Origin: an uncultured Clostridia bacterium
GTDB lineage: Bacteria > Bacillota > Clostridia > Christensenellales > UBA1242
Assembly (NCBI GenBank): GCA_944377485.1
Contig: CALWFB010000001.1
Coordinates: 12,138 to 76,137, forward strand
Direction of reading: 5' to 3'
DNA length: 64,000 bases
Position numbers and translations under genes: made by a program. Positions 3,210 to 60,276 of this stretch are shown here, in pieces (position 1 is the first letter of the stretch; each line of letters opens with the position of its first letter). The notes under the pieces are model-generated. The model made no database searches, had not been told where the DNA came from, and saw nothing but the letters and a program-made list of their open reading frames with translations.

Positions 3210-3941
3210 CTATTTTGAAATCTTATTAAATTCATACAGTGCAATCCCCACACTAATAGGGAGATTGAGACTATCAATTTTTTTACTATGTTCTATCACC
3301 ACACTCTCATCATAATCAAGTAAATTATCTGGTAATCCACTTGCTTCGTTGCCAAAAATTAAATCATATTTTTTATTATCAATATCAAATTTTCCTAATA
3401 TGTTTTTACCTTTCAACATAAAGAAATATTTTTTATTTTTACTATAATTCAAATATTCGCTAATTGAATCAAACTCTTTAATTTTTAATGAAAAGATTGC
3501 CCCCATGCTTGCTCTTATTACTTTTGGATTAAAATAATCCACTGCTGGTTTAATAATAATTAAATTTTCAACATTAAAGCCTAACATTGTACGCATAATC
3601 GTCCCCATATTTCCCATATCAGACGGGTTTACAAGCACGATATTATTTTTATTTGAAATAAATTTTGAATCGTATTTTTCAAATACTCCAACAACAAAAC
3701 AATTTTCTTTGCTAACTAATCGATTGATTAATTTATCGTTATATTCAATCTTTATGTTTTTTTCATTACAAATCTCCAACAATTTGTTAACATCTGGACT
3801 CATTTTCAATTTTGTACTAAGGATAACTTTGATTACTTTGTCAGAACAATTTTTTACTAATTCAAAAGTCGGAAAGATTCCAAATGCATATGAATATGCA
3901 TTATCTTTATCGTATTTTGCTAATTTTAATTCTTCTATCAT
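3210..3941 (-). CDS. TrmH/SpoU-family RNA 2'-O-methyltransferase
   Basis: SpoU-type C-terminal motifs (LVNPSDMGNMGTIMRT, IFGNEASGLP, SLNLPISVGIALYE). TGgTAAAAT lies 6 nt upstream of the ATG. Confidence 0.85.
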   Translation of the reverse strand: MIEELKLAKYDKDNAYSYAFGIFPTFELVKNCSDKVIKVILSTKLKMSPDVNKLLEICNEKNIKIEYNDKLINRLVSKENCFVVGVFEKYDSKFISNKNNIVLVNPSDMGNMGTIMRTMLGFNVENLIIIKPAVDYFNPKVIRASMGAIFSLKIKEFDSISEYLNYSKNKKYFFMLKGKNILGKFDIDNKKYDLIFGNEASGLPDNLLDYDESVVIEHSKKIDSLNLPISVGIALYEFNKISK

Positions 3942-4065
3942 AAAATGATTTTACCACATATAAAAATTTCAAACAACAAAATAAAAATATTTCATAAAAA
4001 ATTGTCATTTAATTTAAAAATTTGTTTTAAACGTAATTTTTCAACAATTAGTATAAAAATGCAAA

Positions 4066-4365
4066 ATGTCCGCACTTTCACAGGACGAATCTCGAAGTGG
4101 GAATAAAAAAATGACCGCCTAATAGGTCAATAATTACGCAGTAATTTGACAAAAGGGCGATTTATAATATAGGGCTCCCACAAGTGTCGTAAGATACGCA
4201 GTGGAAATAGCGAAGCAACTGCTTGATTGTGATGTTTTACATTCATTAAAATATAGGGCTCCCACAAGACGAATGTCGAAGTGGGAAAAATGGAGCGACC
4301 GATTATAAACTCACTGTTGCAATTTCTTTTGAAATTGCGGTGAGTAAAAATCGAGTCACTCCATC
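4066..4365. repeat. three tandem copies (A0, A1, A2) of a structured interspersed repeat, abutting the 3' end of tRNA-Ser(GGA)
   Basis: Hairpin module TCCCAC-(short inner hairpin)-GTGGGA at 4076-4102, 4176-4206 and 4260-4286. A1 and A2 both start ATATAGGGCTCCCACAAG. Confidence 0.6.
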
Positions 4366-4453
4366 TGGCGCAGAGAACAGGATTTGAACCTGCGGATGCT
4401 TTCACATCACACGATTTCCAATCGTGCTCATTCGACCGCTCTGACATCTCTGC
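4366..4453 (-). tRNA. tRNA-Ser(GGA)
   Basis: 88 nt. Acceptor GCAGAGA/TCTCTGC, anticodon loop TTGGAAA, long variable arm. CCA is encoded. Confidence 0.9.
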
Positions 4454-4461
4454 ATGCGGTT

Positions 4462-4490
4462 ATTATATAATAAAAAACTAAAATAATCAA
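4462..4490 (-). promoter_or_regulatory. promoter of tRNA-Ser(GGA)
   Basis: Reverse strand TTGATT-17 nt-TATAAT, 8 nt upstream of the tRNA 5' end. Confidence 0.6.
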
Positions 4491-4542
4491 TATATAAAAT
4501 GTAAAACAATATTAGATTTTATCTTAATAACTCATTATTGCG

Positions 4543-4572
4543 ACAAAAAATAAGCACTGTTGTGCTTATTTT
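4543..4572 (-). terminator. intrinsic terminator of the 4573..5079 gene
   Basis: AATAAGCAC-loop-GTGCTTATT followed by a T-run on the reverse strand. Confidence 0.7.
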
Positions 4573-5079
4573 TTATTTTTTCGCAATAGCCAAGCCTAAT
4601 CCAGATGTGACAATACCTGCAATAGTAATTACATATGGACCAGCATTAGGCAACATTGAAATAGCATCGTTTGTTCCTTGGAAGCATCCAACAAATAGTG
4701 CAATAATAAATACTAATGAACAAACGATTCCTACAATAGCTGCGATTTTCATAATAAGATTAAGTATACCAATGTTTAAGAAGAATTTTAAAACACAGAT
4801 AACCACAATCACAGCAACTGCGATAAGTGCAATCCACATAAAGATTCTAGCTGTTTGCCAAGCACCCAACCAGTCAGGACGCATAGCATCTGATAATTCA
4901 GCTCCCATATCGATTGTATCAAACCAATCGCTCATTGAAGCAGATTCAGAAAGGTCGCTAATTTGCCTTAAACTAGTGGTTATGAATTTGAAAGCCATAC
5001 CTACGAATGTAAAGATACCTGTCACAATAGCTACAATCTTTAAAATTAGACTTGTAGAATCAGTTTTCTTTTTTGCCAT
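4573..5079 (-). CDS. integral membrane protein (hypothetical)
   Basis: Start chosen at ATG 5079 (MAKKKTDS...), preceded by AGGAGG. Several TM helices. The plus-strand ORF 4538..5116 is its shadow. Confidence 0.6.
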   Translation of the reverse strand: MAKKKTDSTSLILKIVAIVTGIFTFVGMAFKFITTSLRQISDLSESASMSDWFDTIDMGAELSDAMRPDWLGAWQTARIFMWIALIAVAVIVVICVLKFFLNIGILNLIMKIAAIVGIVCSLVFIIALFVGCFQGTNDAISMLPNAGPYVITIAGIVTSGLGLAIAKK

Positions 5080-5336
5080 ATACCCTCCTTTTGTTATTAA
5101 CATAATAATCAATTAAAAATTTTATGTCAATCAAAATTCAAAACTTGCTTTAAAATTATGTATTTTTATTAAATATGCTACAATTAAAACTCGGACGATT
5201 TCCTTCTATACAAACTCTATTTTGTTATATATTATATTAATAATATCTAACTTATTTAAATAAGAGAGAATAAATTTTAAAAATCAGTATTGACGAAATA
5301 ATAACTTAGTGATATCATAAACATAGGAATTAAGTT

Positions 5337-5969
5337 ATGAAAAAACCTAAAAAATATTATATGTCAATTTATGGAAAAATTTTCGTAGGAAAATGTGTTT
5401 CAACGGAGTTAGTTAAAGTTTCTAATTTTTTAAATGATATTATAGAAGATTCTTATGTCTTGTATTCTGTTGTCTATAATCAAAATCTTATAGATGATTT
5501 TATCAATTCGCTTAATTTTATACTTAAACGATTTGATGTCTATATTAACAAATTCTCTAAAAATAATCTGGAAGAAAATGATGATTGGTTTAACATCATC
5601 ACGCAAGATATAATCGCATTATATTCATCAATCGAAACGGTGCAGGACAAGTTTTCACCAGAAAAAATCAATATGGCAAAAATACCTTACTATAATAGTA
5701 TATATAACGACTTGACTGAAATATTGCATAATTTGTCTGACATATTATACTATTATTTCCGTATAGAAGATTTTGCAGAAGATGATAGAACCAAGTTCAA
5801 TCCCGAAACTCAAACTGGATTCTCTTTATTAGACAATTATAATGGAGATATTGATGTCATTCCTCGACATGCTGGATTTTATGACGTAAACAAAAAGAGC
5901 ATTATTAAAAAAGAAATCGTAAGCATTAGACGAGCAAAATATATAAATAAAAATATTGATAATTTATAA
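5337..5969 (+). CDS. hypothetical protein (210 aa)
   Basis: ORF with TTGACG-17-TATCAT promoter and AGGAA SD. No family recognised. Confidence 0.55.
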   Translation: MKKPKKYYMSIYGKIFVGKCVSTELVKVSNFLNDIIEDSYVLYSVVYNQNLIDDFINSLNFILKRFDVYINKFSKNNLEENDDWFNIITQDIIALYSSIETVQDKFSPEKINMAKIPYYNSIYNDLTEILHNLSDILYYYFRIEDFAEDDRTKFNPETQTGFSLLDNYNGDIDVIPRHAGFYDVNKKSIIKKEIVSIRRAKYINKNIDNL

Positions 5970-6003
5970 TCAAAAAAAAGGCAATTGTTATTCATTGTCT
6001 TTT

Positions 6004-6501
6004 TTATTTTAAAATACCTTCTATTTGCAGTAATTTAACTTTTCGAGCAATACCACCTGCATATCCAGTCATCTTACCATTACTTCCTAAAACCCTATGG
6101 CAAGGTATTATAATAGAAATAGGATTGTGTCCAACAGCCCCTCCTACTGCACGTGCAGACATTCTTTTATGTGTATGTTTAGCAATTATATCGGCTATCT
6201 CTTTATAACTAATTGTTTTACCATAAGGAATATTTTTTAATATTTCCCATACCTTTTTACGAAAATCAGTACCTTCTAATTCGATAGGAATATTTACATT
6301 ATCCACAATCTTTCCACTAAAATAAGCATCTAAATAATTTTTGACTTTTTTAAAAATCAAAAGTGTATCATTTTCCACATAGCCCTTAATATGCGCCTGA
6401 TTAAAATATCTTTGATTCGAAAAATATAATCCAAAAAGTTTTTCTCCATTACTTGTTGCAATCATCTCACCTAATGGCGAATTATATACAAAATAATACA
6501 T
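6004..6501 (-). CDS. ogt: methylated-DNA--protein-cysteine methyltransferase
   Basis: Active-site PCHRV (IIIPCHRVLGSNG) and a typical C-terminal HTH region. Confidence 0.9.
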   Translation of the reverse strand: MYYFVYNSPLGEMIATSNGEKLFGLYFSNQRYFNQAHIKGYVENDTLLIFKKVKNYLDAYFSGKIVDNVNIPIELEGTDFRKKVWEILKNIPYGKTISYKEIADIIAKHTHKRMSARAVGGAVGHNPISIIIPCHRVLGSNGKMTGYAGGIARKVKLLQIEGILK

Positions 6502-6583
6502 TCCTTCTCCCTACTATATAAATCTATTGACATACTCATTATAACATAGTTATAAAAAAATAAAAAGGTCAAATTTGACCTTT

Positions 6584-7094
6584 TTAAAATTTTATACATC
6601 TTTTTATCTCACAACAAAAGCATTTGTTAAAATTGCATCTACGACTTCGATTGCAACAATTTTTTCTACGATTGTATCTACTAGAACAATTTGAATTGCA
6701 GCAACATCCACACGATATATAACCACAAATGTTTTTCATAATTTTACATTTGTGTCTAATACATTTAGGCACTGGATTTCTTGGAAAAACTCGTGTTATC
6801 ACTTCATTACTTAACGATACTTCTGGTGGAAACACTGAATTATCTGCAACCAGAGAAATGTTTCTAATTTCTGTTGGCATACTAATTCACCGTCACATCA
6901 AACTCAACCACTGTACTAGCACCCACTGCAAGATTTGGAAGAGCAAAACCAACAGCTGGATTACTTCCTGGTTGAAATATACCATCAATTTTTACACTAT
7001 TTGCAACAAAAGTTGTACCAGTTGGTATGACATCTGTAAATACGAGATTTGTTTTTAATAGTGTACCTGTATTTGTGATTGTGCTGACACGCAA
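6584..7094 (-). pseudogene. DUF11-like repeat-domain surface protein remnant with a Cys-rich tail (5'-truncated, frame-shifted)
   Basis: ORF 6882..7094 (VSTITNTGTLLKTNLVFTDVIPTGTTFV...VEFDVTVN) ends at TAG. The domain continues (IRNISLVADNS...) in the adjacent ORF 6584..6880 in another frame. No signal peptide or N-terminus. Confidence 0.45.
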
Positions 7095-7373
7095 AAATAT
7101 GTAAATATACTCAACAATGAATCAGCATACATATATTCACTAGGACTAAATTATGATGGACAGACCGGCAGTGTCAAGATACAGAAGTTAAATCAAGAAG
7201 TTCAAAACGAAATCTATTTTGAGACAATAACCGAGAGCGAATTCTTATCAGAAATCAAGAACCAACTTTTAGACACCACTCTAACAGACGAGAAGATAAC
7301 GAGTTTTTACAACAAATTCAAAGCAGAGGATTCCACTTTCACTCTCTCATTAAAGGATAAAATCACAATTGAT

Positions 7374-10300
7374 TTGCAAATCGAAGCATTACTAAAATCC
7401 AATAAAAGACTAGCCCAAGACCTAGAAGACTACGAAATGCAAATCACGAAATTAGAGCATCAACGTGAATTATACGAAATGCAGGTTCCAGTGCACTATT
7501 TGTACAATGAGGATAATATAATCTATGGATTTGGCAAAACTGCGAATGAAGACATCTTCCGCTTAATTCTAATCACCGATTCATATGAAAATTCAATATT
7601 TATCAATTACTCCTCATCCGAAAGCAACCAAATCACCAGCATCATTGATTCAGCGGAAAAGAGCATTACTTTCAACTACGACAGCCAGTTGAGGCTATCG
7701 AGCATAATTGATGCACGAGATAGAGAAATTTCATTTGCATATGTTAACAATCTTTTAACGACAATCACCTACCCTGATAAAACTATCAGTCGCTATTTCT
7801 ACGACTCAGACAACAAGATGATAGCGATAATAGACCAATCAAATATGGGTGCATATTTAGAATATTCGGACAATCAAATCAAGGTTCAAGCGCTCTCCGC
7901 ACTAAATTCTATCAAGCATAACCAGCCAGATTATCAAAAGGTTCTAGACTCGACCACTCTGACCTCTTATTTAATCGACAATTCATATCTCACAATCCAA
8001 TTTTACGACTGCAAAACCACCCACGTCAAAAATGCAAAGGGCAAGACCGTAGTCTATGTATTCAACAATCAAGGACAGGCAATCAATATATACGAAGATA
8101 GTTCTTCCCTGGATTCAGACAACACTAATGTACTGTCCAGACAATACTCTTACACAGACAAATTGCTGTCCGAATCAATCACCACCCTTCCTTATGCCAG
8201 AAATTATTTAGACGGTTCATGCTTCGACACAAGTATAATCTCACAGATTCCAGCACTCTACACTGGCAATATAATCGTCAGTGAAAATGCTTATTCAATC
8301 CCAAGTTTCATCAAAACAGCCTCCTGCGTTCACACTTTCACAGGCGACTTTCAGTCCGCTTCAATCTCAATGAGTGAACTAAATATTAGCGAACTAAACA
8401 CACAACTGACCTCAAAAAAGATTGAAAATATGGTACTCACCGGTTGGGCAAAGGCAAATTCCGCTTTCGTAAAGAATCCAAATGTGGCTGACAAATTTAA
8501 TGACGAAGAAATATCCTACCCAAGTTATATAGACAATAGGAAATTCGAACTTCGCATTTCAATCAAATATTCGGACGAAACCGACCCTCAAATTCTTTCA
8601 AAACAATTTGATTGGATGAACACCGAGTGGCAATATTGCTCTCTTCCTATCAAATTGAAACCAAAACAAATCGAATCCATATCTTGCTATTTCGATTATT
8701 CCAACAATACTAATACAGCCAACGTTCAATTCACTGATTTAGAGTTGCGTGAAGGTAGTTGTGAATCAAGGCATTATGACGATGAAAGCAAACTCATCAA
8801 ATCTGAATCTTCCACTTCTTTCACTCTCTACACCTACGACTCTGATGGCAATCTAATGAGCGAAACCACCCGTCTGATTCATGACGAAGACGATAAAGAA
8901 TTTATCACAACCTACGAATACAACAAAAACAACAAATTATTAAAAACCATCGACTATAATGGTATCATCACAGAAAATGTATATAATGACAAAGGTGTAG
9001 TGACGAAAACTTTGACCTACCATATCAATGAACCTACTCGCAAATTCTATTCCGAAACCCCAACTGACGAAAAAGGCAACACCACAGCTAGCGTAAACGA
9101 ATTTGGCGAACCTCTTGCTAATTATGAGTACATTGATGGCACAGGCATAATCTCTACCGAAACCGACCCTCACAACAACAGAACCTCGTACGCCTACGAC
9201 TCTAATGACACTCTAATCGGCTTAACCAGCACTGTCAATGGCGAAGAAAACACCAATATCTATGGCTACACCCTCACCTTTTTGACCTCGCTTAAACACA
9301 ACGACTTTGAATACAACTATGAGTATGACAACCTAGGCAAACTTAGCAAAATCTCCATTGCAGGAAACGAGTATCTATCTAAAACGTATGCTTATCAAGA
9401 TAATGACTCCATAGAACATGATAGCGAAACCACCACGTACAAGAATGGTGCAACGTTCAAGCAAATTCTCAATGATGACGGCAATGCCACTACTCTTGAA
9501 TATAACGGCAACACTATTCTAGAAAATATCTACAATTCGCTTGGCAATATCATTCAATCTACTGATATGTCAAATGATGAAAATAATATTCACAAGTATT
9601 ATTATGACAAATTTGGCAATCTGTATAGAGAAACCAACACTCAGCACAATACTAATGTTGAATTCGAAAACACTCTCAATCTTGACACAAATCAGCTAGA
9701 TGAGTCCACTATCAAATTAGGTAATGACACTTATCGCTACAATTATTCTTATACCAACAAACTTGACTCCACCATTTCTAATTTGTCTTTAACTAAATTT
9801 ACTAACTCAGATTCTTCCACAGCGCAAACCACCCCAATCTTTGAATCAAATATCAGTTATGATAGACTTGGTAGAATCTCAGAAATCGTTCAAGGTATAA
9901 ATCGTAAACAATATCACTATCTATCCAGTGGAGACCATACGTCAAATCTCATTTCTAGTGTTTGGTATGGTGACAATCTTAAACTTAGTGAAAACTATAA
10001 ATATCGCTATGACGAAAAAGGTAATATCCTAGAAATCCGAGAAAACGGCACTCTAATTGCTCGTTATAAGTATGATAGTTTATCTCGTCTAATCAGAGAA
10101 GATAACAAATCATTCAACAAAACCACAACCTACGACTATGACGCCGGTGGAAATATAATATGTAAAAATATATACAACTTCACACTAGTTGAAAATCTAG
10201 ATTTTGAGACCATTCAGTCTACAATTCCTTATTTATACAAATCTACTGGCTGGCGTGACCAATTAGTTTCATATAATGGCGAAACCTTTACTTATGACGA

Positions 10301-11558
10301 AATTGGTAATCCAACTAAATATAGAGATAAAAACTTATCATGGTCACACGCTAGACAGCTGGATAGTTTCGGAGATATTGCAAGTTTCAAATATAATGCT
10401 AATGGTATTAGAATCAGCAAGACCGTAAATGGTATTACAACTAAATATTATTTAAACGGAAATAAAATCATATCTCAAACTGATGCTACCAATACTCTAT
10501 TCTTCTATTACGGAACAGATGGTATTACAGGCTTCAACCATAATGGAACTGATTATTTATATAAGAAAAATATTCAAGGTGATATAATTGGAATCTATAA
10601 TCCAGAGAACAAGTTAATATGTAAATATATCTATGACGCATGGGGAAATCACGTTTGTCGAATTTTGTCGAATAATGGAGAATACGTTGACATAGTAGAT
10701 ACAAGTAATTATAATATTAATAGCAATTATATAACTATTGCTAACTTAAATCCTTTCCGCTATCGTAGTTATTACTATGATACAGAGACAGGACTATATT
10801 ATCTTAATAGTAGATACTATGACCCACAAACTGGAAGATTCATTAATGCAGATGCTATTTCCATAATTGACATCTCTCAAATAACTATTAATGGATTAAA
10901 TCTTTATTCTTATTGCTTAAATAACCCAGTTAACCAAATTGACGAAAATGGTTATATCGTTGGCTGGCTATTGGCTATAATTGTTGGCTCGATTATCGGA
11001 GCAACGGTGAATACTGGTTTTGAAGTGGCTAATCAAGTAAAAAATCATGGCTGGGATTTAGAAAACTGGAATTGGACTCAAATAGGATTGTCTTTTTTAG
11101 GCGGTGCAGTTTCAGGAGCCATTTCAGCAATTCCTGTTCCTGGATTTCAGACTTTCGGTATTTGGGGTAAAGTTTTTCATTATGGATTAACTTTTGTTAT
11201 TGGAGGTATCGGAGCTGTTGCAGGAGGCTTAATAGATGGTTCTGTCTATAATATCAAAAGTGCTTTTACAAATTTTGCTATTGGTGGAACTTTTAGTTTA
11301 TTTGCTGATTTATTTACAAATGGATTAAATAATATTGTTCAAAAATATTCAAACAATGTTTTAACAAATCCTTTATATGCTAATATGACTTTGGAAGACT
11401 TAATTGGTAGTGGTTTGAAAGAATATCCAAAACATTTAGCAAAATTAATGAATAAATTATCGCGTGCAATATTATATGCAAACAGAGGATTAACCAAATC
11501 TATATTTTATATGATTGGAATAAATTCAATTTTAGAAATCATTTCTGGTTTGCTATAA
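7374..11558 (+). CDS. RHS/YD-repeat toxin protein, apparently 5'-truncated (frame open from 7062 with no upstream start codon)
   Basis: Dozens of YD repeats (YDxxGN, YxYD). Core end YDAWGN...NPFRYRSYYYDTETGLYYLNSRYYDPQTGRFINAD...LYSYCLNNPVNQIDENGY, then a 200-aa variable C-terminus. Only a TTG start at 7374, with no SD. Confidence 0.85.
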   Translation: MQIEALLKSNKRLAQDLEDYEMQITKLEHQRELYEMQVPVHYLYNEDNIIYGFGKTANEDIFRLILITDSYENSIFINYSSSESNQITSIIDSAEKSITFNYDSQLRLSSIIDARDREISFAYVNNLLTTITYPDKTISRYFYDSDNKMIAIIDQSNMGAYLEYSDNQIKVQALSALNSIKHNQPDYQKVLDSTTLTSYLIDNSYLTIQFYDCKTTHVKNAKGKTVVYVFNNQGQAINIYEDSSSLDSDNTNVLSRQYSYTDKLLSESITTLPYARNYLDGSCFDTSIISQIPALYTGNIIVSENAYSIPSFIKTASCVHTFTGDFQSASISMSELNISELNTQLTSKKIENMVLTGWAKANSAFVKNPNVADKFNDEEISYPSYIDNRKFELRISIKYSDETDPQILSKQFDWMNTEWQYCSLPIKLKPKQIESISCYFDYSNNTNTANVQFTDLELREGSCESRHYDDESKLIKSESSTSFTLYTYDSDGNLMSETTRLIHDEDDKEFITTYEYNKNNKLLKTIDYNGIITENVYNDKGVVTKTLTYHINEPTRKFYSETPTDEKGNTTASVNEFGEPLANYEYIDGTGIISTETDPHNNRTSYAYDSNDTLIGLTSTVNGEENTNIYGYTLTFLTSLKHNDFEYNYEYDNLGKLSKISIAGNEYLSKTYAYQDNDSIEHDSETTTYKNGATFKQILNDDGNATTLEYNGNTILENIYNSLGNIIQSTDMSNDENNIHKYYYDKFGNLYRETNTQHNTNVEFENTLNLDTNQLDESTIKLGNDTYRYNYSYTNKLDSTISNLSLTKFTNSDSSTAQTTPIFESNISYDRLGRISEIVQGINRKQYHYLSSGDHTSNLISSVWYGDNLKLSENYKYRYDEKGNILEIRENGTLIARYKYDSLSRLIREDNKSFNKTTTYDYDAGGNIICKNIYNFTLVENLDFETIQSTIPYLYKSTGWRDQLVSYNGETFTYDEIGNPTKYRDKNLSWSHARQLDSFGDIASFKYNANGIRISKTVNGITTKYYLNGNKIISQTDATNTLFFYYGTDGITGFNHNGTDYLYKKNIQGDIIGIYNPENKLICKYIYDAWGNHVCRILSNNGEYVDIVDTSNYNINSNYITIANLNPFRYRSYYYDTETGLYYLNSRYYDPQTGRFINADAISIIDISQITINGLNLYSYCLNNPVNQIDENGYIVGWLLAIIVGSIIGATVNTGFEVANQVKNHGWDLENWNWTQIGLSFLGGAVSGAISAIPVPGFQTFGIWGKVFHYGLTFVIGGIGAVAGGLIDGSVYNIKSAFTNFAIGGTFSLFADLFTNGLNNIVQKYSNNVLTNPLYANMTLEDLIGSGLKEYPKHLAKLMNKLSRAILYANRGLTKSIFYMIGINSILEIISGLL

Positions 11559-11578
11559 ATTTTAATTTAGAGGTATAA

Positions 11579-12094
11579 ATGAAAAAACTTTTAAATACTA
11601 ACAAATATGATTGGATATTCCCTTTACTACTCTTTATAATTTTTCTTATCTCTTTAATATGTCTACTTATATTATATATACCTAATACAAATAGTAATTT
11701 ATCATTAAAAACACTTTTAATAGTTATATTATCAATCCTAATGCTTACATCTTTAATTTGTTTTTTATTTACTTTCCAATTTATAATTATAAACAAGAAT
11801 GGAATTATATTTAGGTGTTTAATATGCAAATATTCTTTTATAAAATGGAATGAAATTAAAAGCCTTAAATTAATTAACTTAAATACTAGTTCATCAATAG
11901 TTGGAATGAAATACTATCACATTTTTATAGAAATACAAACAATAAATGATAAACAAAATATGTTTAATAAAATATTATATAATAAAAAAAATGCAAATAT
12001 CCTTTTAGAATTTATTAATAAATATAATAAAAAAATCGATATAACTTGTTTAACAGAGAACTCAAATTTTAATTCAACTATTAAATGGTTTTAA
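11579..12094 (+). CDS. candidate cognate immunity protein (membrane-anchored)
   Basis: Starts 20 nt after the RHS stop. It has 2-3 N-terminal TM helices. The position is typical for rhs immunity genes. No family recognised. Confidence 0.45.
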   Translation: MKKLLNTNKYDWIFPLLLFIIFLISLICLLILYIPNTNSNLSLKTLLIVILSILMLTSLICFLFTFQFIIINKNGIIFRCLICKYSFIKWNEIKSLKLINLNTSSSIVGMKYYHIFIEIQTINDKQNMFNKILYNKKNANILLEFINKYNKKIDITCLTENSNFNSTIKWF

Positions 12095-12186
12095 ATTAAT
12101 TGTTTTTAAATAATTAAATTAAATAATAAAAAAGTATGATATATCATACTTTTTTATTTTTGTACAAATACATATATTTACCTTAA

Positions 12187-12645
12187 TATAATCTAGATTT
12201 TGAGACCATTCAGTCTACAATTCCATATTTATACAAATCTACTGGCTGGCGTGACCAATTATTGTCCTACAATGGCGAAACCTTTGTTTACGATTCTATT
12301 GGCAACCCAACTACTTATAGAAACAAAACTCTTTCTTGGTCTCACGCTAGACAGCTGGATAGCTTTGATACTCATACATACAAATACAATGCAAATGGCA
12401 TACGTATTCAGAAAGATAATATCCAATTTTTCTTAAATGGCAATAAGATTATTTCACAAACCGATGGAACTGACACTCTATTCTTCTATTATGCCTCAGA
12501 CGGTGTCACTGGCTTCAATCACAATGGAACCGACTATTTCTACAAGAAAAATATTCAAGGTGATATCATAGGTATATATAATAATGAAAATAAACTTGTT
12601 TGTAAATATATTTATGATGCCTGGGGAAATAAAAAAGGACAGTAA
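12187..12645 (+). pseudogene. orphan rhs core fragment (duplicate of 10195..10650) lacking a toxin domain
   Basis: NLDFETIQSTIPYLYKSTGWRDQL.SYNGETF...YDAWGN parallels the main gene. The first ~75 nt are near-identical and the rest is diverged. It ends YDAWGNKKGQ-stop. No ATG start. Confidence 0.75.
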
Positions 12646-12667
12646 TGATTACTGTCGCTTTTTTTTG
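12638..12667 (+). terminator. intrinsic terminator after the orphan rhs fragment
   Basis: GACAGTA-loop-TACTGTC followed by GCTTTTTTTT. Confidence 0.7.
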
Positions 12668-12693
12668 ATAATTTTCATTTTAAATGTATTTAT

Positions 12694-13329
12694 TTAATTA
12701 CTTGTCTTTGTGTACAATTTTTCTGTAAAGGTATTAATCTTTTCTGTATTAGATTCTATTTGTGCCTTATATTCATTTTCTGTCTCTTTAAGAGATGAAA
12801 TCTCATTATTTAATTCCAATATTTCTGAACTGTCTTGACAAAACAAATCTCTTAATTGTGTTAATGAAGTTAGTTTTTCAGTAATGGCTTCAAGAGATTT
12901 TTCAGCTGTTTTATTTTCTTTGTTTAAAGTCTTTATAGTTTCTTTAATATAAGAAATTGTTTCTTTTGTTAAATCAGAATTTATTTGTAATTTGCCAGAT
13001 TTTATGCCTTTAATCACTAACCATATTCTAGACACAATAGCATATAGAGATAATGATATTAACCATGAACTAATTGCACTATCTAGCACTAATAATGAAA
13101 TCCACTGTCTTTCAGTTATGCCGTAATACACAACACTAGCGATAAATGACAAAACAAGAGGTATAAACATAATAACAATGTTAACCATTTTCCTTTTGTT
13201 CTCTTCTAATGTTGAAGTTTTTTTCTTAATTGGCAATTTAATTAAATATGTCAAAAGAAAAGCTCCAAACCCAATCAACAATGCTTCCAATGTATAATTT
13301 TTGAAAATATTAAATATTTCATATTCCAT
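12694..13329 (-). CDS. membrane protein with a C-terminal coiled coil (hypothetical)
   Basis: Start set at MEYEIF (AGGAG 8 nt upstream). Three TM helices, then a heptad-like Glu/Lys-rich tail. Confidence 0.55.
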   Translation of the reverse strand: MEYEIFNIFKNYTLEALLIGFGAFLLTYLIKLPIKKKTSTLEENKRKMVNIVIMFIPLVLSFIASVVYYGITERQWISLLVLDSAISSWLISLSLYAIVSRIWLVIKGIKSGKLQINSDLTKETISYIKETIKTLNKENKTAEKSLEAITEKLTSLTQLRDLFCQDSSEILELNNEISSLKETENEYKAQIESNTEKINTFTEKLYTKTSN

Positions 13330-13518
13330 AATTATATCTCCTTTTAAAATTTTCATTAAAAACAAACATATTTTCTCCTTTTATATAAGATATCTTATCT
13401 ATTCTAATTGTAATTATAATTCACTATAATTTACTATAATCTTTATTGAAATTTACTTATAAAAAGTTTGTTAACAAAAACAAAAAAGTCATTAGAAATT
13501 TCTAGTGACTTTAATTCA

Positions 13519-13595
13519 TGGTGCGTCCAGAGGGATTCGAACCCCCGACCTTTGGTTCCGTAGACCAACGCTCTATCCAGCTGAGCTATGAACGC
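13519..13595 (-). tRNA. tRNA-Arg(ACG)
   Basis: 77 nt. Acceptor GCGTTCA/TGGACGC, anticodon stem TTGGT/ACCAA, loop CTACGGA. CCA is encoded. Confidence 0.9.
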
Positions 13596-13616
13596 ATATA
13601 TGATTATTAAGATAAT

Positions 13617-13751
13617 TACTTACGTGACCGAATGAGGAACCAAAGGTCACAATGGGTCCCACCAGACGAATGTCGAGTGGGAAGAGGAGCAACTAACCGA
13701 AAAAGGCTACATTTGCGTTCAGCAAATTGCCAAGAGTGCTAGTTGCGACGA
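13617..13751. repeat. structured interspersed repeat, copy B, bracketed by a 63-nt direct duplication
   Basis: TCCCAC-CAGACGAATGTCGA-GTGGGA (13657-13682). Then stem GCAACTA/TAGTTGC enclosing hairpin GGC-TAC-ATTTGC-GTTCA-GCAAAT-T-GCC. Confidence 0.6.
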
Positions 13752-13793
13752 GGTTCCGTAGACCAACGCTCTATCCAGCTGAGCTATGAACGC
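13752..13793 (-). pseudogene. duplicated 5' half of tRNA-Arg(ACG), through the anticodon loop
   Basis: 13752-13814 is identical by eye to 13554-13616 (63 nt: tRNA positions 1 to ~42 plus 21 nt of upstream flank). Confidence 0.85.
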
Positions 13794-13965
13794 ATATATG
13801 ATTATTAAGATAATAATTGAATATATAGATATTTTTCAATCAATGCACCTTAATTCTAACGTTTTTTATTATATCATAAAATTTTTTTTAATGCAAGACT
13901 TTATTTAAAAATAGTTAATTAAAATAAAAAAGTCTAAATTTTAGACTTTTAATATATCAAACAAA

Positions 13966-14532
13966 TTACTTATTTTTAAATAATAACAATCTTTTGGAGA
14001 TATAGTTATATATAAGTACGATAATTGTCACAATCACTTTAACTAACCATTGATTCCAACCCAATAGGTCAAATCCAATATACATACCTGCTAGATTTAT
14101 GCCTAGACCAATCGCGCTTAATATTGTAAATATTATAAAACCTTTCGTAGATTTACTTTTCCCTTTTTCATTAAATACGAATAGAATTGACATAATATAA
14201 TTAGCCAACAGTCCAACAATAAAACCAACTCCTGTACCAATTATTGTAGCCATCGTAGAAGGTGTTGGCGTATTAATAAATACGTTTACAAAAGATTCGT
14301 ATATACTAGGTTGCATTATATACATCACAACACCCATAGTGAACATATCTACAATAGTGGCAATGCCTCCACAAATTACGAAACGAATAATTTCACTAAC
14401 CGTTTTATGTTGTTTTGAGAATTCTTTATATTTATCAAGTAGAATTAAATATATTCGTTTAGGCAAAAGCAAAAGAATCATTAATATTACAGCTAATAAC
14501 ACGCATAAAACTGACCATATTACATTAAACAC
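13966..14532 (-). CDS. GtrA-like polysaccharide-synthesis membrane protein
   Basis: IRFVICGGIATIVDMFTMGV-type GtrA N-terminus, 4-5 TM helices. Downstream partner of a GT2 gene. Confidence 0.7.
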   Translation of the reverse strand: MFNVIWSVLCVLLAVILMILLLLPKRIYLILLDKYKEFSKQHKTVSEIIRFVICGGIATIVDMFTMGVVMYIMQPSIYESFVNVFINTPTPSTMATIIGTGVGFIVGLLANYIMSILFVFNEKGKSKSTKGFIIFTILSAIGLGINLAGMYIGFDLLGWNQWLVKVIVTIIVLIYNYISKRLLLFKNK

Positions 14533-47624: not shown

Positions 47625-48980
47625 TTAATATTTTAACAATTGAGATTTAATATCATTTACAAGTGTTCTAATATGTGGATTTATTTTTACTTGATTACTA
47701 ATTTTATCTCTTGCATGCATAATAGTCGTATGGTCTCTTCCTCCAAATATTGCACCAATTGCAGTAAGTGGAATGCTAAGCATATCGTTTATTAAATATA
47801 TGCACAACTGTCTTGGTTCAACAATTTCTTTATTTTTTTTCTTTCCAATCAAATCTTCTTTCGATACTTTGAAGAAATCACATACGGTATTTAAAATTTT
47901 CTCTGCATCGAGATTTGTTTTTTCTGTCTCTCCATAATCTTTAAGTGCTTCGTGAGCATCTTCCATAGAAGCATGTGATTTTCCAAGCAAACTTGAATAA
48001 AATACCACTTTTGATAATATTCCTTCCATCTCACGAATATTAGTTCCTGTCTTTTGTGCTATAAAATCTACTACATCTTCGTCAACAAGATATCCCTCTT
48101 GACTACATTTTTTCTTAATAATTGCTACCTTAGTTTCATAATCAGGCTCTTGAATATCTTGAATAAGCCCACTACTGAATCTACTACGTAATCTCTCTTC
48201 TAATGAACTCATCTCTTTTGGTGAACGGTCAGAAGCAATTATAATCTGTTTATTGTTTTGATATAAATCATTGAATGTATGGAAGAATTCTTCTTGAATT
48301 CCCATTTTGTTGCTAATGAATTGAATATCATCAATCATTAACACATCTACACTACGATATTTATCTCTAAAATCGAGATTTGATTTATCTTTTCCACTAC
48401 GGATAGAATCTACATAATCATTTGTGAATTTTTCACATGTCACATAAAGTACGTTTAAATCAGGTCTATGTTTGTTTAAATAATTACCAACTGCATGCAA
48501 TAAGTGTGTTTTACCAAGTCCAACACCTCCATAAATGAATAATGGATTAAATTTTTCACTAGGGTGTTCCGCTACACTCTGCATAGCTGCACATACTACT
48601 TGATTTGATTTTCCTACTACAAAGTTTTCAAATGTATATTTTTGATTAAATTTGGACTTAAAGTTATTTGAATCTTTTTCACTCATCATTCGCTCTAATT
48701 CTTCATCTTGTTTTCTAATAGATTCTTCATATTCCTGATTGTCTGTTATTCGAACGAATGTATATGGTGTAAACTCTTGTCTAACACATTTTGTTATTTT
48801 TTCATATATAGCAGGTTGATTAACTTGATTTTTCGCTGTAATACTAGGTGCTTTTAATATTAATTCATCATTTGCATATTGAATTGGCGTCAAGGTATTT
48901 ATCCATAAATCAAAGGTGACAGCGGTCACTTCGTTTTCTAACTTATTCAATACCTTTTTCCATTGGTCAAGTAAAAACAT
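47625..48980 (-). CDS. dnaA: chromosomal replication initiator protein DnaA
   Basis: Walker A GGVGLGKTHLLHA, MIDDIQF. C-terminal DNA-binding domain FGGRDHTTIMHA. Confidence 0.95.
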   Translation of the reverse strand: MFLLDQWKKVLNKLENEVTAVTFDLWINTLTPIQYANDELILKAPSITAKNQVNQPAIYEKITKCVRQEFTPYTFVRITDNQEYEESIRKQDEELERMMSEKDSNNFKSKFNQKYTFENFVVGKSNQVVCAAMQSVAEHPSEKFNPLFIYGGVGLGKTHLLHAVGNYLNKHRPDLNVLYVTCEKFTNDYVDSIRSGKDKSNLDFRDKYRSVDVLMIDDIQFISNKMGIQEEFFHTFNDLYQNNKQIIIASDRSPKEMSSLEERLRSRFSSGLIQDIQEPDYETKVAIIKKKCSQEGYLVDEDVVDFIAQKTGTNIREMEGILSKVVFYSSLLGKSHASMEDAHEALKDYGETEKTNLDAEKILNTVCDFFKVSKEDLIGKKKNKEIVEPRQLCIYLINDMLSIPLTAIGAIFGGRDHTTIMHARDKISNQVKINPHIRTLVNDIKSQLLKY

Positions 48981-49219
48981 ATACCACTCCTCAATTTTTG
49001 TTGCTATTATTATATAATAAAAATAATATTAAGTCAATTAGCAAATCAAAATTAAATTAAAGGTTTTGTTTGTTGTTTTTTATGATTGGCACTGTATTTT
49101 AAAATCAGTTTTCATGACATAATTATTGTTTAGTCAATCAATCTCTTTGAAAAATGAAAAATACGAAATATTCTAATAAATTTTTTATTGGTACTGAAAT
49201 ATTTGTTCTCTATGATGAG

Positions 49220-49365
49220 TTATACACATTGAAATTTGGGTTATCAACATAAATATACACACATTTAGTCACATTTATTGTGGATAAAAATAGTATGAAT
49301 TTTGTCGAATTATGACAGAATCACCACTATATATTGAATTAAATTAAGTTGTCCACTTTTCCACA
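49220..49365. promoter_or_regulatory. DnaA boxes in the dnaA-dnaN divergent intergenic region
   Basis: TTATACACA 49220, TTATCAACA 49241, perfect TGTGGATAA 49279, TTTTCCACA 49357. Confidence 0.7.
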
Positions 49366-49522
49366 TTCACTAATAAAAAAATCACTATCAAAAAACAAAA
49401 AAAATTAATAAAAAAACTACACGTGCACGCACGCATATAATGCGCATAAAATACTATTTTATAGTATTTTTCTTTGATTTAATTAATAGAAAAAATTTTT
49501 CGACAAAAGTGTAAAAATTTAT

Positions 49523-49551
49523 TTGACATATCTAGGCTCGTTTGCTAATAT
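49523..49551 (+). promoter_or_regulatory. promoter of dnaN
   Basis: TTGACA-17 nt-TAATAT. About 90-nt 5' UTR to ATG 49645. Confidence 0.6.
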
Positions 49552-49644
49552 AGTCATGTATCATTAGATGGAATGCGAGCAATTTCACGTGGTACAGATG
49601 ATATTGAGGGGGAAGTATTATCGTGGTATGTTAAGGAGTCTATT

Positions 49645-50742
49645 ATGAAATTTAGATGTGATGGTTTAGAATTGAGCGAAGCAATTAGTACAGTATCAAA
49701 AGCTATTAGTTCAAAGACTACTTCTCAAATACTTGAAGGAATTAAGATGGTATGTGAGAATGACTTGCTTATACTTACTGCTACTGACCTTGAAATGAGT
49801 ATTGAAAAGAGAATTCGAGCAGAAGTTGATTCTCGTGGCGAAACAGTTGTGCCAGGTAGATTATTTGGCGAATACATAAAAAAGCTAACTAATGAACAGA
49901 TTGAATGTGAATTGAATGAAAAAAATCAGTTAAAAATTTCGTATACAGACAGTGAAGGCTGTTTACAATGTATGGAAATTAGTGAATTTCCTGCAATTAA
50001 AGAAGTTAATAAGGATAATTTCTTTGAAATCACAAAAGAAGATTTCAAAGCTTTAATAAATAATGTTTTCTACGCAGTAGCACAAGATGATAGTAGACCA
50101 ATTTTGAAAGGAATATTGTTAGAAACTAATCAAAATACGATTAAAGCAGTGGCTGTGGATGGTTGTAGATTGAGTATTTCTAATAAAAATCTTGTTATGA
50201 GTACAACAGATTTTAAAATCATTGTTCCAGGAAGGAATCTTAATGAAATTGTTAAGATGATGAATGGCGATGATAATGTGAAAATCTATGTACATTCAAA
50301 CAACATAATGGTAGATTTGGGTGATACGATAGTAATCAATCGTTTGATTGATGGGCAATTTATTAATTATCGTCAGATTGTTCCAAAGGATTTTTCAACA
50401 ATTGTCACCATCAACAAAGAGCAATTAGAAGATGCTATTGATAGAGCCAGTGTACTTTCTCGCATTGACAAAAATAATTTAGTAAAATTTGACATCAAAG
50501 AGAAAAATTTGATGCTTACGTCAAATAGTGAAATAGGTAATACACGTGAAAATATTACAGTAGGAGTAAAAGGTAATGATTTAAACATTTCGTTTAATTC
50601 TAAATATTTTAGTGATTGTTTGCGTGTGATTGATAATCCATACGTTAAGATGAACTTTAATAGTCAGATTCAACCTTGTGTAATAACTCCATGTGAAGGT
50701 AATGATTTCTTATTTTTGATTTTACCTGTAAAAGCTAGATAA
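49645..50742 (+). CDS. dnaN: DNA polymerase III beta sliding clamp
   Basis: Start at ATG 49645 (MKFRCDGLELSEAIS) after AAGGAG. About 365 aa, clamp family. Confidence 0.9.
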   Translation: MKFRCDGLELSEAISTVSKAISSKTTSQILEGIKMVCENDLLILTATDLEMSIEKRIRAEVDSRGETVVPGRLFGEYIKKLTNEQIECELNEKNQLKISYTDSEGCLQCMEISEFPAIKEVNKDNFFEITKEDFKALINNVFYAVAQDDSRPILKGILLETNQNTIKAVAVDGCRLSISNKNLVMSTTDFKIIVPGRNLNEIVKMMNGDDNVKIYVHSNNIMVDLGDTIVINRLIDGQFINYRQIVPKDFSTIVTINKEQLEDAIDRASVLSRIDKNNLVKFDIKEKNLMLTSNSEIGNTRENITVGVKGNDLNISFNSKYFSDCLRVIDNPYVKMNFNSQIQPCVITPCEGNDFLFLILPVKAR

Positions 50743-50851
50743 TAAATTAATTAAATTTAATAATTTAATAAAAAATTTATTATAATAAATATAATATAAA
50801 TATAAAATAAATTAATAAAAAAATATTTTGTAATACGAAAATATCTATTAT

Positions 50852-50941
50852 TTATCCACATTTAAGTTTTTCGAACATATGTTTAATTTATATAAATATA
50901 AATTAAAAGTTATCCACATTTTAATTTCGTATTGTGGATAA
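50852..50941. promoter_or_regulatory. three perfect DnaA boxes in the AT-rich region downstream of dnaN
   Basis: TTATCCACA at 50852 and 50910. TGTGGATAA at 50933. Confidence 0.75.
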
Positions 50942-51068
50942 CTTTTTTTTATTTTCTATTGATTAATTTTTTTAATTGAATTATAATATTTTAGTTATAT
51001 AATTTTTTTATTATTTTTACAGTTATATAATTGTATGTAAATATAAAAAAATAGATTAGTTTATTTAT

Positions 51069-51156
51069 GGAGAGTTGTCAGAGTGGTCTAATGTGTCGCT
51101 CTCGAAAAGCGATGAGGTGCAAGCCTCCGGCGGTTCGAATCCGCCACTCTCCGCCA
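51069..51156 (+). tRNA. tRNA-Ser(CGA)
   Basis: 88 nt. Anticodon stem TCGCT/AGCGA, loop CTCGAAA, long variable arm. CCA is encoded. Confidence 0.9.
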
Positions 51157-53763: not shown

Positions 53764-53974
53764 ACAAGTTTTATACATACCATTATTGCGACTAAGTCTT
53801 ATAGGAACCCAAACAATGCAAATAAAATGAGCAATTTAACATAAAAGCGAGAAATTCTTAAATTAAACCTTTTAAACAGGAAAAGAAGTAATGAAGGAAA
53901 ACGCATGTTGTCCTTCATAAAAGCGAGTAATCAAGCAAAAGACTAAAATTGCGCTAGCAATTTAGTAATAGCAA

Positions 53975-54086
53975 AATAGGAATCCTGCGAGACGAATGTC
54001 GAGTGGGAAAGAGGAACGACCGAACAAAAGGCTTACATTCGCATAAACTTCGTTTAGCGAATTAGCAAAAGTTCGAGTTGTGACGT
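53975..54086. repeat. structured interspersed repeat, copy C, abutting the 5' end of tRNA-Leu
   Basis: TCCTGC-GAGACGAATGTCGA-GTGGGA (53983-54008). Then stem ACGAC-CGAAC/GTTCG-a-GTTGT enclosing hairpin ATTCGC...GCGAAT. Confidence 0.6.
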
Positions 54087-54173
54087 GCGGATATGGCGAA
54101 ACTGGCAGACGCGCTAGATTCAGGTTCTAGTGGGAGCAATCCCTTGCAGGTTCAAGTCCTGTTATCCGCACCA
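54087..54173 (+). tRNA. tRNA-Leu(CAG)
   Basis: 87 nt. Acceptor GCGGATA/TATCCGC, anticodon stem CTAGA/TCTAG, loop TTCAGGT, long variable arm. CCA is encoded. Confidence 0.9.
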
Positions 54174-59787: not shown

Positions 59788-60039
59788 ATGATAGAATTTA
59801 GATATGATACACAACTATTAATTGAAGGGAAAAATTTAGATGAAGATAAAATTAGAGAGTATTTTACAAAGAATTTTAAAGGAGATTGTCTGATTGCTGT
59901 TGGTGATAGTGAATTAATTAAAATTCATTTTCATACAAATGAGCCATGGGACGTTTTGAAATATTGTGCTACTCTTGGCGAAATCTGTGATATAGTTGTC
60001 GAAGATATGGATAGACAATCAAGAGGCCTGAAAGGATAA
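59788..60039 (+). pseudogene. fragment of a DAK2-fusion YloV-like protein (83 aa)
   Basis: GDCLIAVGDSELIKIHFHTNEPWDVLKY...VVEDMDRQ resembles an internal YloV module. Far shorter than full-length YloV. Confidence 0.5.
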
Positions 60040-60166
60040 TAATATCTTCGACAACTAAGGGGGTCCCCACATGTGATGAAAATCACTTGAAGGGGAGGAG
60101 GAGCAATCAAGCAATAGACTTGGAATGCGATATAGAGCATTCAAGTAATGGTGAAGATTGCGATGC
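60040..60166. repeat. structured interspersed repeat, copy D, bracketed by a 34-nt direct duplication
   Basis: TCCCC-ACAT-GTGAT-GAAA-ATCAC-TTGAA-GGGGA (60064-60096), then GGAGGAGCAATCAAGC as in copy B, then hairpin CTTGGAATGC...GCATTCAAG. Confidence 0.55.
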
Positions 60167-60276
60167 AAGATATGGATAGACAATCAAGAGGCTTGAAAGG
60201 TTAATTATTTTGTTAATCGCATATTATTAAACTTTCTAAATTTTGGTTTTGCTTTTTAATAGGGATAAGGAAAAAT

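Follow-up and report, generated by a model that had tools for sequence, protein, structure and literature searches.

The stretch of DNA analysed here, called the window throughout, is 64,000 nt of a contig from an uncultured Clostridia bacterium, and in it the tRNA-Arg(ACG) gene stands next to a half copy of itself, with copy B of a structured repeat that we call E between the two. On balance, the whole of 13554-13814 is probably best explained as one insertion of E, in which the 63-nt direct repeat at its two ends would be a target duplication and the element would have been positioned by base pairing with its target and copied in by target priming. Since the 63-nt duplication would have been made in the same event, the intact tRNA-Arg(ACG) gene would have been retained. 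A sequence-only reading of this DNA had claimed that 13554-13616 and 13752-13814 are identical and that each consists of the first 42 positions of the tRNA and 21 nt of 5' flank; the identity was confirmed (63/63) and the coordinates agree with the composition, tRNA-Arg raw positions 1-42 plus 21 nt of 5' flank, with the break inside the 3' strand of the anticodon stem at raw 42|43. The 135 nt between the repeats (13617-13751) do hold repeat copy B, as it had also claimed, with a covariance-model match of 83.3 bits at 13654-13751. Their GC content is 49% compared to 30% across the window, and there is no transposase, integrase or credible open reading frame (ORF) inside them. Within this insert, 13636-13648 (GGAACCAAAGGTC) repeats 13547-13559 exactly in inverted orientation and crosses the break, where it divides into 6 and 7 nt. 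The 13-mer and its inverted partner are its only 2 occurrences in the window, where 0.03 would be expected, and the match to the target is better than that of all 1000 shuffles of the 5' part of the insert. This 13-mer had been described as lying in the loop of a GTGACC/GGTCAC hairpin; it is indeed an inverted tRNA copy but it is not wholly in the loop, as its last 4 nt belong to the 3' arm. The features of the locus are as follows.

13519-13595, minus strand: intact tRNA-Arg(ACG) (ARAGORN; Rfam tRNA, 67.4 bits), with its first 42 nt inside the proximal repeat copy
13554-13616, no strand: direct repeat copy 1, made up of tRNA raw 42 to 1 and the 21-nt leader and belonging to the functional gene (63/63; single in the empty alleles L044 and L045)
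13617-13635, plus strand: 5' extension of the insert (f1), 19 nt, TACTTACGTGACCGAATGA, 5' arm and loop of the GTGACC/GGTCAC hairpin
13636-13648, plus strand: guide-like segment GGAACC|AAAGGTC, exact reverse complement of 13547-13559, crossing the joining point 13553|13554 (0/1000 shuffles)
13649-13653, plus strand: linker ACAAT, from the guide-like segment to the E core
13654-13751, plus strand: E core copy B, ending in GACGA joined directly to the target (covariance-model match of 83.3 bits; covariation; strand asymmetry)
13752-13814, no strand: direct repeat copy 2, consisting of a half tRNA-Arg pseudogene (13752-13793) and the 21-nt leader (13794-13814)
13810-13839, minus strand: promoter-like site upstream of the half tRNA, TTGAAA, 18 nt and TATTAT (consensus match only; the -10 straddles the repeat boundary)

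The intact tRNA-Arg retains AATTAT without a -35, again by consensus match. Because the promoter-like site stays with the half-tRNA and the -35 is lost from the intact gene, it is a reasonable inference that the half-tRNA, the element in antisense and the full tRNA may be read through from the old promoter. The repeat boundary at -21 was also considered as the transcription start and was rejected, as the best promoter match puts the start near -10.

When related contigs were compared, both an empty and a filled allele of this site were found, which is direct evidence that closely related strains are polymorphic for the insertion. In the empty alleles, L044 from a sister sample and L045, the locus of GtrA, tRNA-Arg and the gene for a 211-amino-acid (aa) protein is exactly 198 bp shorter, and these contigs carry exactly the same flanking protein and one tRNA without the repeat or the duplication. 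The filled site is identical in L046, an independent Brazilian sample that was separately assembled, and the contig L047 starts at the filled junction; L034 and L043 are 100% identical copies of the ENA metagenome scaffold that holds the window. Because the empty alleles lack both the duplication and E and the filled alleles have both, the two arrived together, in one insertion event. The sequence-only reading had named an assembly artefact and a local duplication without the repeat as the findings that would speak against it. The short-read contigs of several other samples do break inside the duplicated tRNA half, which would suit an artefact, but such breaks are expected because the repeat is 63 nt long. 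The filled structure was assembled independently in L046 and in the source of the window, with L047 beginning at the junction, the empty alleles lack the duplication as well as the repeat, and there are three analogous events elsewhere. An artefact, or a plain local tandem duplication unrelated to the repeat, is therefore extremely improbable. About 170 nt downstream of tRNA-Arg and before the 211-aa gene, L046 (826-2825) and also L047-L049 carry two extra genes, of 561 aa and 103 aa, neither of which had a Pfam or PADLOC match. For the protein adjoining tRNA-Arg(TCG) the look-up returned no record.

The three further insertions were found in tRNA-Leu(CAG), at another site in tRNA-Arg and at the end of a protein gene. 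In L066 (2453-2730), which is of the window's species, a 191-bp E insertion lies inside tRNA-Leu(CAG) at raw 28|29 in the order tRNA[1-28], antisense E, filler and full tRNA. The window and 13 other contigs have this gene without interruption, which gives 14 empty alleles. The two repeat copies of L066 differ at position 16, where the half copy has C16 like 14/14 empty alleles and the full copy has T16 as in L011, another species. In L059, of the same species and with rearrangements at the tRNA-Arg locus, the full tRNA is followed by 47 nt, a 15-nt inverted copy, E and tRNA[52-77]. The last of the three, event D, is the second complete insertion in the window and is situated at the 3' end of ORF 59788-60039, which encodes an 83-aa FakA-like protein.

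60002-60208, plus strand: event D, whole insertion
60002-60043 and 60167-60208: direct repeat of event D, 42 nt, 93% identical
60042-60057: guide-like inverted copy, 16/16 against 59993-60008
60062-60166: E core of event D (24.4 bits with the covariance model; fold z = -3.9)

The empty allele of event D, in L082 from a sister sample, is 165 bp shorter. The repeat extends 4 nt beyond the stop codon, and all differences between the repeat copy that forms the end of the ORF and the other copy are at synonymous sites.

The tRNA-Arg(ACG) locus of L059 (8515-12031) also carries a classical integrative remnant and has two extra tRNA fragments, [33-77] and [52-77]. The fragment tRNA[33-77] bounds an island of 1.26 kb that has a GNAT acetyltransferase, and another island, of 1.95 kb and with a helix-turn-helix regulator and a zinc-ribbon protein, begins 3 nt upstream of the tRNA. 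A 133-nt structured repeat, X, which is unrelated to E, was also seen in a tRNA gene: in L004 (1835-2084), a Clostridia metagenome-assembled genome (MAG), it separates the full gene from a half tRNA-Lys(1-41). The inverted tRNA-derived stretch of X (raw ~36-66) lacks 4 nt, with the junction at the centre of the deletion, and a homologue of X is present at 1374-1413 of the window, downstream of tRNA-Glu.

When the four E events, which have different E variants and different targets, are read on the E strand, the parts follow in the same order in all of them: the target left of the join, the direct repeat, a 5' extension that may be lacking (0-49 nt), a copy of the target across the join in reverse complement, a linker of 6-9 nt, the E core ending in GACGN, and the direct repeat again. 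The inverted junction-spanning copies are 10-16 nt long, end 4-7 nt before the E core and match at 13/13, 10/10, 13/15 and 16/16 positions in B, L066, L059 and D, respectively. Shuffled 5' parts gave an equal or better inverted match in 0/1000 cases for B, 0/1000 for L066 and 4/1000 for L059. In the same sequence of events, the distance from the join-equivalent point to the TCCC that opens the first hairpin (at 13657 in copy B) is 15, 15, 16 and 15 nt, and its components vary (7+8, 6+9, 9+7 and 9+6), so that the fixed distance of 15-16 nt can be read, from these sequences, as a molecular ruler. At every junction E ends in its conserved 3' terminus GACGN, which is joined precisely to the target. 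The direct repeats are 63, 28, 26 and 42 nt and end 21, 0, 0 and 4 nt beyond the interrupted gene, and the non-repeat inserts are 135, 163, 163 and ~124 nt; with 135 nt compared to the two copies of 163 nt, copy B resembles a 5' truncation. The length of the duplication is not a property of the element and appears to be whatever keeps the gene intact. In 4/4 events an A stands in the element directly on the 5' side of the inverted copy, in place of the C of the target, the target base after the copied stretch is G, and the copied stretch begins with a purine (G, G, G and A). This A/C/G flank pattern may mark the 5' end of synthesis or a flanking-motif requirement (n=4). The E cores of L066 and L004 are 84% identical, and related cores carry different matching segments. 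Among the 5' extensions of the different events there was one weak 17-nt match (p ~0.01), and the likeness between B and L004 was not significant. Judged by this comparison, the 13-nt inverted copy is not incidental and is a recurrent, position-fixed signature in four independent insertions. As the sequence-only reading had remarked, the duplication is unusually long, 63 nt being beyond the range of classical transposases. Its proposal of an unusual insertion aimed at tRNA genes holds for the unusual insertion and not for a strict aim at tRNA genes, as event D is at the 3' end of a protein gene.

What is E itself? It is about 100 nt in size and consists of two helical domains, a hairpin with a purine-rich internal loop and then a three-tier long stem, followed by the terminal conserved GACGN. 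A covariance model made from eight E copies gave 16 strong copies. In their alignment 88.8% of the cells are paired compared to 73% in shuffles, compensatory changes are present in 18/24 pairs, and 0/500 shuffles came up to these values; when the 3' partner in every pair was shifted by 1-3 columns, the pairing fell to 33-41%. On the E strand there are 37 G-U pairs against 5 A-C mismatches, whichever the orientation to the neighbouring tRNA. These data show directly that E is conserved as a single-stranded fold which is selected on its own sense strand. Because of the covariation and the G-U/A-C asymmetry it is the sense strand of E that is functional, and this strand is here antisense to the tRNA. 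The earlier suggestion that the half-tRNA plus the antisense element could be an RNA in its own right is unlikely for the same two reasons. Searches with Rfam 15 gave only tRNAs, in the whole window at the gathering threshold, in 3800-14200 at an E-value <=10 and in five related loci at an E-value <=0.1.

The E core motif GACGAATGTCGA(A)GTGGGAA has 4 occurrences in the window, all on the plus strand. Most E copies abut tRNA genes, and two further placements of this kind were found in the window.

4073-4364, plus strand: tandem E array with A1 (4073-4170), a partial middle unit and A2 (4257-4364) (covariance model; tandem)
53980-54086, plus strand: E copy C (covariance model, 91.6 bits), its 3' end adjoining +1 of tRNA-Leu(CAG) at 54087-54173

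The 3' end of the array adjoins the CCA end of tRNA-Ser(GGA) (4366-4453, minus strand) and is thus downstream of that tRNA; neither a direct repeat nor a guide-like copy was detectable at the array. Upstream of copy C, from 53785, there are degenerate E and leader remnants, and this arrangement is orthologous in another species (L011). When 4040-4365 of the window was compared with L069 (12440-12760), the long stem of the tRNA-proximal unit was seen to be replaced by that of the distal unit in one strain, which indicates recombination or gene conversion between members of E arrays across strains. Exact-pattern scans with the 19-mer core were made over ~186,000 genomes and the Joint Genome Institute (JGI) metagenomes. 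In these scans most matches were chance matches in GC-rich genomes, and relatives of E were found only in uncultured low-GC Clostridia (L004, L011, L031, L056, L059 and L060), where they again adjoin tRNA genes; the same core gave 0 matches in a viral contig collection. A Planctomycetota MAG (L009, L012, L018 and L028) has a different multi-copy palindromic repeat of ~95 nt with the same 19-mer, GACGAATGTCGAGTGGGAA, at its centre, and no similarity to E was seen beyond this 19-mer.

How could such an insertion come about? The constant order of the parts, the ruler and the exactness of the 3' join speak against random repair and for a join that is positioned by E, or by a protein holding the E scaffold, through base pairing with the target. 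A probable course, in which every step is proposed from sequence comparison, is that the RNA of E pairs with one target strand through its 5' segment and that the other strand is nicked or joined at the measured distance by a protein which binds the E scaffold. Primed by the 3'-OH of the nick, E would then be copied into DNA beginning at its processed 3' end, that is, by target-primed reverse transcription. The second strand would be primed on the E copy, synthesis from the other side would displace a variable stretch of the target, and ligation of the flap after this displacement would leave a direct repeat of variable length. In essential genes only those rare events would survive in which the whole gene is rebuilt by the duplication. 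If the displacement is usually short, insertions in essential genes would survive only when it reaches the end of the gene, and this limit would be the reason why the repeats stop at or just past the gene ends; a short displacement would likewise be the reason why most E copies at tRNA boundaries have no visible repeat. A still more specific view, doubtful although it deserves a minor chance, is that E is the RNA part of a bacterial RNA-guided, target-primed retro-insertion system and thereby a natural counterpart of prime editing. In such a system the 5' segment of 10-16 nt would pair with the target, the scaffold-bound protein would nick at 15-16 nt and the nicked strand would prime reverse transcription of the same RNA, starting at its 3' end.

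Several points weigh against the explanation by base pairing and target priming, and the main one is the source of the matching segment: a pre-existing guide needs each E variant to have acquired a match to its target, which the explanation does not account for. No donor copies for B, L066 and L059 were found among all the loci collected, and no donor was found for any event. No reverse transcriptase was found among the scanned ORFs of the 64-kb window and the scattered loci and no nuclease or other partner in the window, and no promoter was detectable for copy B on its own strand. The older E copies at tRNA ends (A1, A2, C, L004, L011 and L031) have neither the repeat nor the guide-like copy; they have either decayed or arisen differently. 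The T16 at tRNA-Leu fits a gene segment borne by the element equally as well as a later mutation. Finally, there are four events only.

The T16 is one of the points in favour of a miniature integrative element, that is, a circle of ~190 bp consisting of E and its own gene segment as the att core, which would be inserted by a Campbell-type single crossover through a recombinase acting in trans or through homologous recombination, so that the repeat would be borne by the element. Such a circle would account for the similar totals of repeat plus insert (198, 191 and 189 bp) and for the insert-side copy at tRNA-Leu having the T16 of another species while 14/14 empty alleles have C. The breaks are near the anticodon arm and the T arm, and the tRNA-Arg locus is a classical integration hotspot where the tRNA[33-77] of L059 bounds the 1.26-kb island. 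Copy B, however, repeats the 5' half of the tRNA and 21 nt of a strain-specific leader instead of the usual 3' part, event D is in a protein gene, there is no integrase in or near the inserts, and a circle of ~190 bp recombines poorly. As it also leaves the inverted copy, the fixed spacing of 15-16 nt and the location of the E 3' end exactly at the repeat boundary unexplained, we regard this origin as unlikely. Another possibility is an accident of replication or repair, in which a nascent strand at a stalled fork or a break switches templates, by fork stalling and template switching or microhomology-mediated break-induced replication (FoSTeS/MMBIR) or by microhomology-mediated end joining with snap-back, copies E and the opposite target strand, and then copies the target again. 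Repair of this type typically leaves short templated inverted copies beside duplications, and tRNA genes act as fork barriers. The unrelated family X is also inserted in a tRNA gene with a 41-nt repeat, E arrays recombine between strains, and an inverted-repeat template-switch model has been described (PMC10766183). Random switching is, on the other hand, not expected to arrive in four independent events at one order of parts, one precise E 3' end and one spacing of 15-16 nt, nor does it explain why a complete E is inserted every time and always faces the junction in the same orientation, and no microhomology is visible at the E 3' junctions. We therefore give such an accident the same low probability as the circle.

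Less likely still than these two is a hybrid complementary DNA (cDNA), which would form when a 5' fragment of the tRNA primes reverse transcription of E or when the enzyme jumps from a 3' fragment of the tRNA to E, the chimera then recombining with the tRNA gene. It is in favour of such a cDNA that the outer ends of the repeats are the ends of the mature tRNA in 3 cases (+1 in L066 and in the tRNA-Lys of L004, and the CCA end in L059) and that older E copies abut exactly the +1 or the CCA end. End-to-end template switching is, moreover, known for reverse transcriptases of the group II-intron type (bioRxiv 10.1101/792986). In copy B, however, the repeat reaches 21 nt upstream of the tRNA and into the predicted -10, and event D is without any tRNA and has a repeat that ends 4 nt past a stop codon. 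The inverted junction-spanning copy is also left unexplained, and that of L059 cannot derive from the tRNA RNA because it is antisense to the tRNA.

When E was compared with known systems, the closest likenesses in logic were found with the retrohoming of linear group II introns, with target-primed reverse transcription of SINE/LINE elements and with the guide-carrying RNAs of transposons (omega-RNAs and bridge RNAs). Linear group II intron RNAs reportedly retrohome by partial reverse splicing, target-primed reverse transcription and end joining, in work attributed to Zhuang and colleagues (2009, in PNAS). An internal sequence of the intron pairs with the target across the insertion point (exon-binding site EBS1 and delta with intron-binding site IBS1 and delta'), as the copies of 10-16 nt would do in 4/4 E events, and this is an analogy of logic only. 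Both also have a precise 3' join, a ragged or variable 5' junction and a single-stranded RNA intermediate, which for E is inferred. In contrast, E has ~100 nt and two helical domains where the intron is a six-domain ribozyme, and it has no domain V/VI, GUGYG start, Rfam intron match or encoded reverse transcriptase. Group II introns make no target duplications of 26-63 bp as the E events do, and the complementary segment of E is contiguous with 4-7 nt on the 3' side of the junction, compared to 1-3 nt in group II introns. Non-LTR (long terminal repeat) retroelements and short interspersed elements (SINEs) are non-autonomous and structured and have a precise 3' end, a variable or truncated 5' end and target duplications of variable length, and these junction features are found in E; its copies also cluster at tRNA genes, as those of some eukaryotic elements do. 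E is, however, without an A-rich tail, and SINEs are without a reverse-complement copy of the target and have duplications that are usually <20 bp. To our knowledge, there are no elements of the non-LTR/SINE type in bacteria. A retroplasmid of Neurospora mitochondria reportedly integrates through a tRNA-primed hybrid cDNA, in work attributed to Chiang and colleagues (1994, in Mol Cell Biol). There, too, cDNA made from a small RNA becomes linked to tRNA sequence, integrates at a tRNA gene and duplicates tRNA sequence, but the retroplasmid encodes a reverse transcriptase, has a tRNA-like 3' end and no guide-like inverted copy, and belongs to a eukaryotic organelle.

The omega-RNAs of IscB/TnpB and the bridge RNA of IS110 resemble E in having a short variable segment beside a conserved scaffold, which matches the element's own insertion site, and in acting at a fixed distance. 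The guides of omega-RNAs are, however, transcribed from the flank and the copy in E lies inside the insert. IS110 bridge RNAs have split guides in two internal loops and a 2-nt core duplication, compared to one contiguous segment and repeats of 26-63 nt in E. The pairing in E is only 10-16 nt and is 6-9 unpaired nt away from the scaffold, unlike in the guide RNAs of IscB, TnpB and IS110. No IscB, TnpB, IS110, DEDD recombinase or transposase was found by Pfam in the window ORFs scanned and no omega-RNA or IS605-orfB RNA family matched E in Rfam. A remnant of a TnpB/IscB omega-RNA, which came into question since the 3' end of E adjoins variable tRNA sequence, was rejected, as there are no such genes and the guide would target the retained intact tRNA itself. 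Like the elements of tRNA-targeting tyrosine integrases, E inserts in a tRNA gene, leaves part of the tRNA as a direct repeat and keeps the gene intact; those elements, however, measure kilobases, code for an integrase and rebuild the 3' part of the tRNA, and the E inserts are 123-163 nt without an ORF. Copy B repeats tRNA 1-42 and the leader, and only the L059 event has a repeat of the 3' part as in integrative elements. The palindrome-associated transposable elements (PATEs) of IS200/IS605 insert 3' of a conserved tetra- or pentanucleotide without duplication, whereas E has left flanks that differ in every copy and direct repeats of 26-63 nt, and classical MITEs (miniature inverted-repeat transposable elements) have their own terminal inverted repeats and a fixed short duplication, whereas the only inverted repeat of E involves target-derived sequence and its duplication is 26-63 nt. 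IS200/IS605, integron attC, repetitive extragenic palindromes and their mosaic elements (REP/BIME), group I introns and small self-cleaving ribozymes were rejected on their sequence or architecture features, E having no conserved target motif and no R'/R'' cores, being too small and having no Rfam match. Nothing matching E was found in the literature on tRNA-targeting bacterial mini-elements. Because the defining features of each testable known family fail, E is classed, from comparative sequence and four events, as a new kind of element whose signature matches that of no known bacterial mobile element.

Should the signature be due to targeting by base pairing, E would be a minimal and reprogrammable insertion module of ~120 nt, and the choice of target could be read from the E sequence, which would be of interest for genome-writing tools and for the origin of guide-directed mobility. 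If the retro-insertion view is true, E would be the first SINE-like guide-directed retroelement in bacteria, possibly with a reprogrammable guide. On the conservative reading, essential single-copy tRNA genes can tolerate internal insertions since the event rebuilds the gene. This reading also accounts for tRNA pseudogenes made of the 5' half, unlike integrase models, and makes E an uncatalogued family of structured elements that shapes the leaders and trailers of tRNA genes in gut-type Clostridia.

Some observations on the E copies and on the rest of the window may be added. On the minus strand, at 4250-4279 and 53973-54002, the antisense of the conserved E hairpin reads TCGACA and makes up outward-facing promoter-like sites with the AT-rich 5' edge of E. 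The antisense long stem with a T-run after it resembles a terminator for the adjacent tRNA in A2 and in L011. A conserved ORF of 54 aa (MYKTVIIPYTASAKKRAKLIEEKINE...) lies between tRNA-Gln and the E array that precedes tRNA-His in L031 (1009-1173) and L004 (4213-4377). The window is the chromosomal origin region, with dnaA, rpmH-rnpA-yidC, parAB, mnmEG, aminoacyl-tRNA synthetases and an RHS locus. In 47625-51070, dnaA is on the minus strand and an AT-rich region upstream of tRNA-Ser(CGA) has repeated TTATCCACA boxes; this region is probably oriC, and E copies flank the putative oriC on both sides in the same orientation. A consistent bias for one replication strand was rejected, as all window copies are on the plus strand and yet lie on both sides of dnaA and the DnaA-box region. 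At 7374-12645 there is an RHS-repeat protein of 1394 aa, followed by small downstream ORFs and an RHS C-terminal fragment, and this block is replaced or absent in the related strains L044 and L059.

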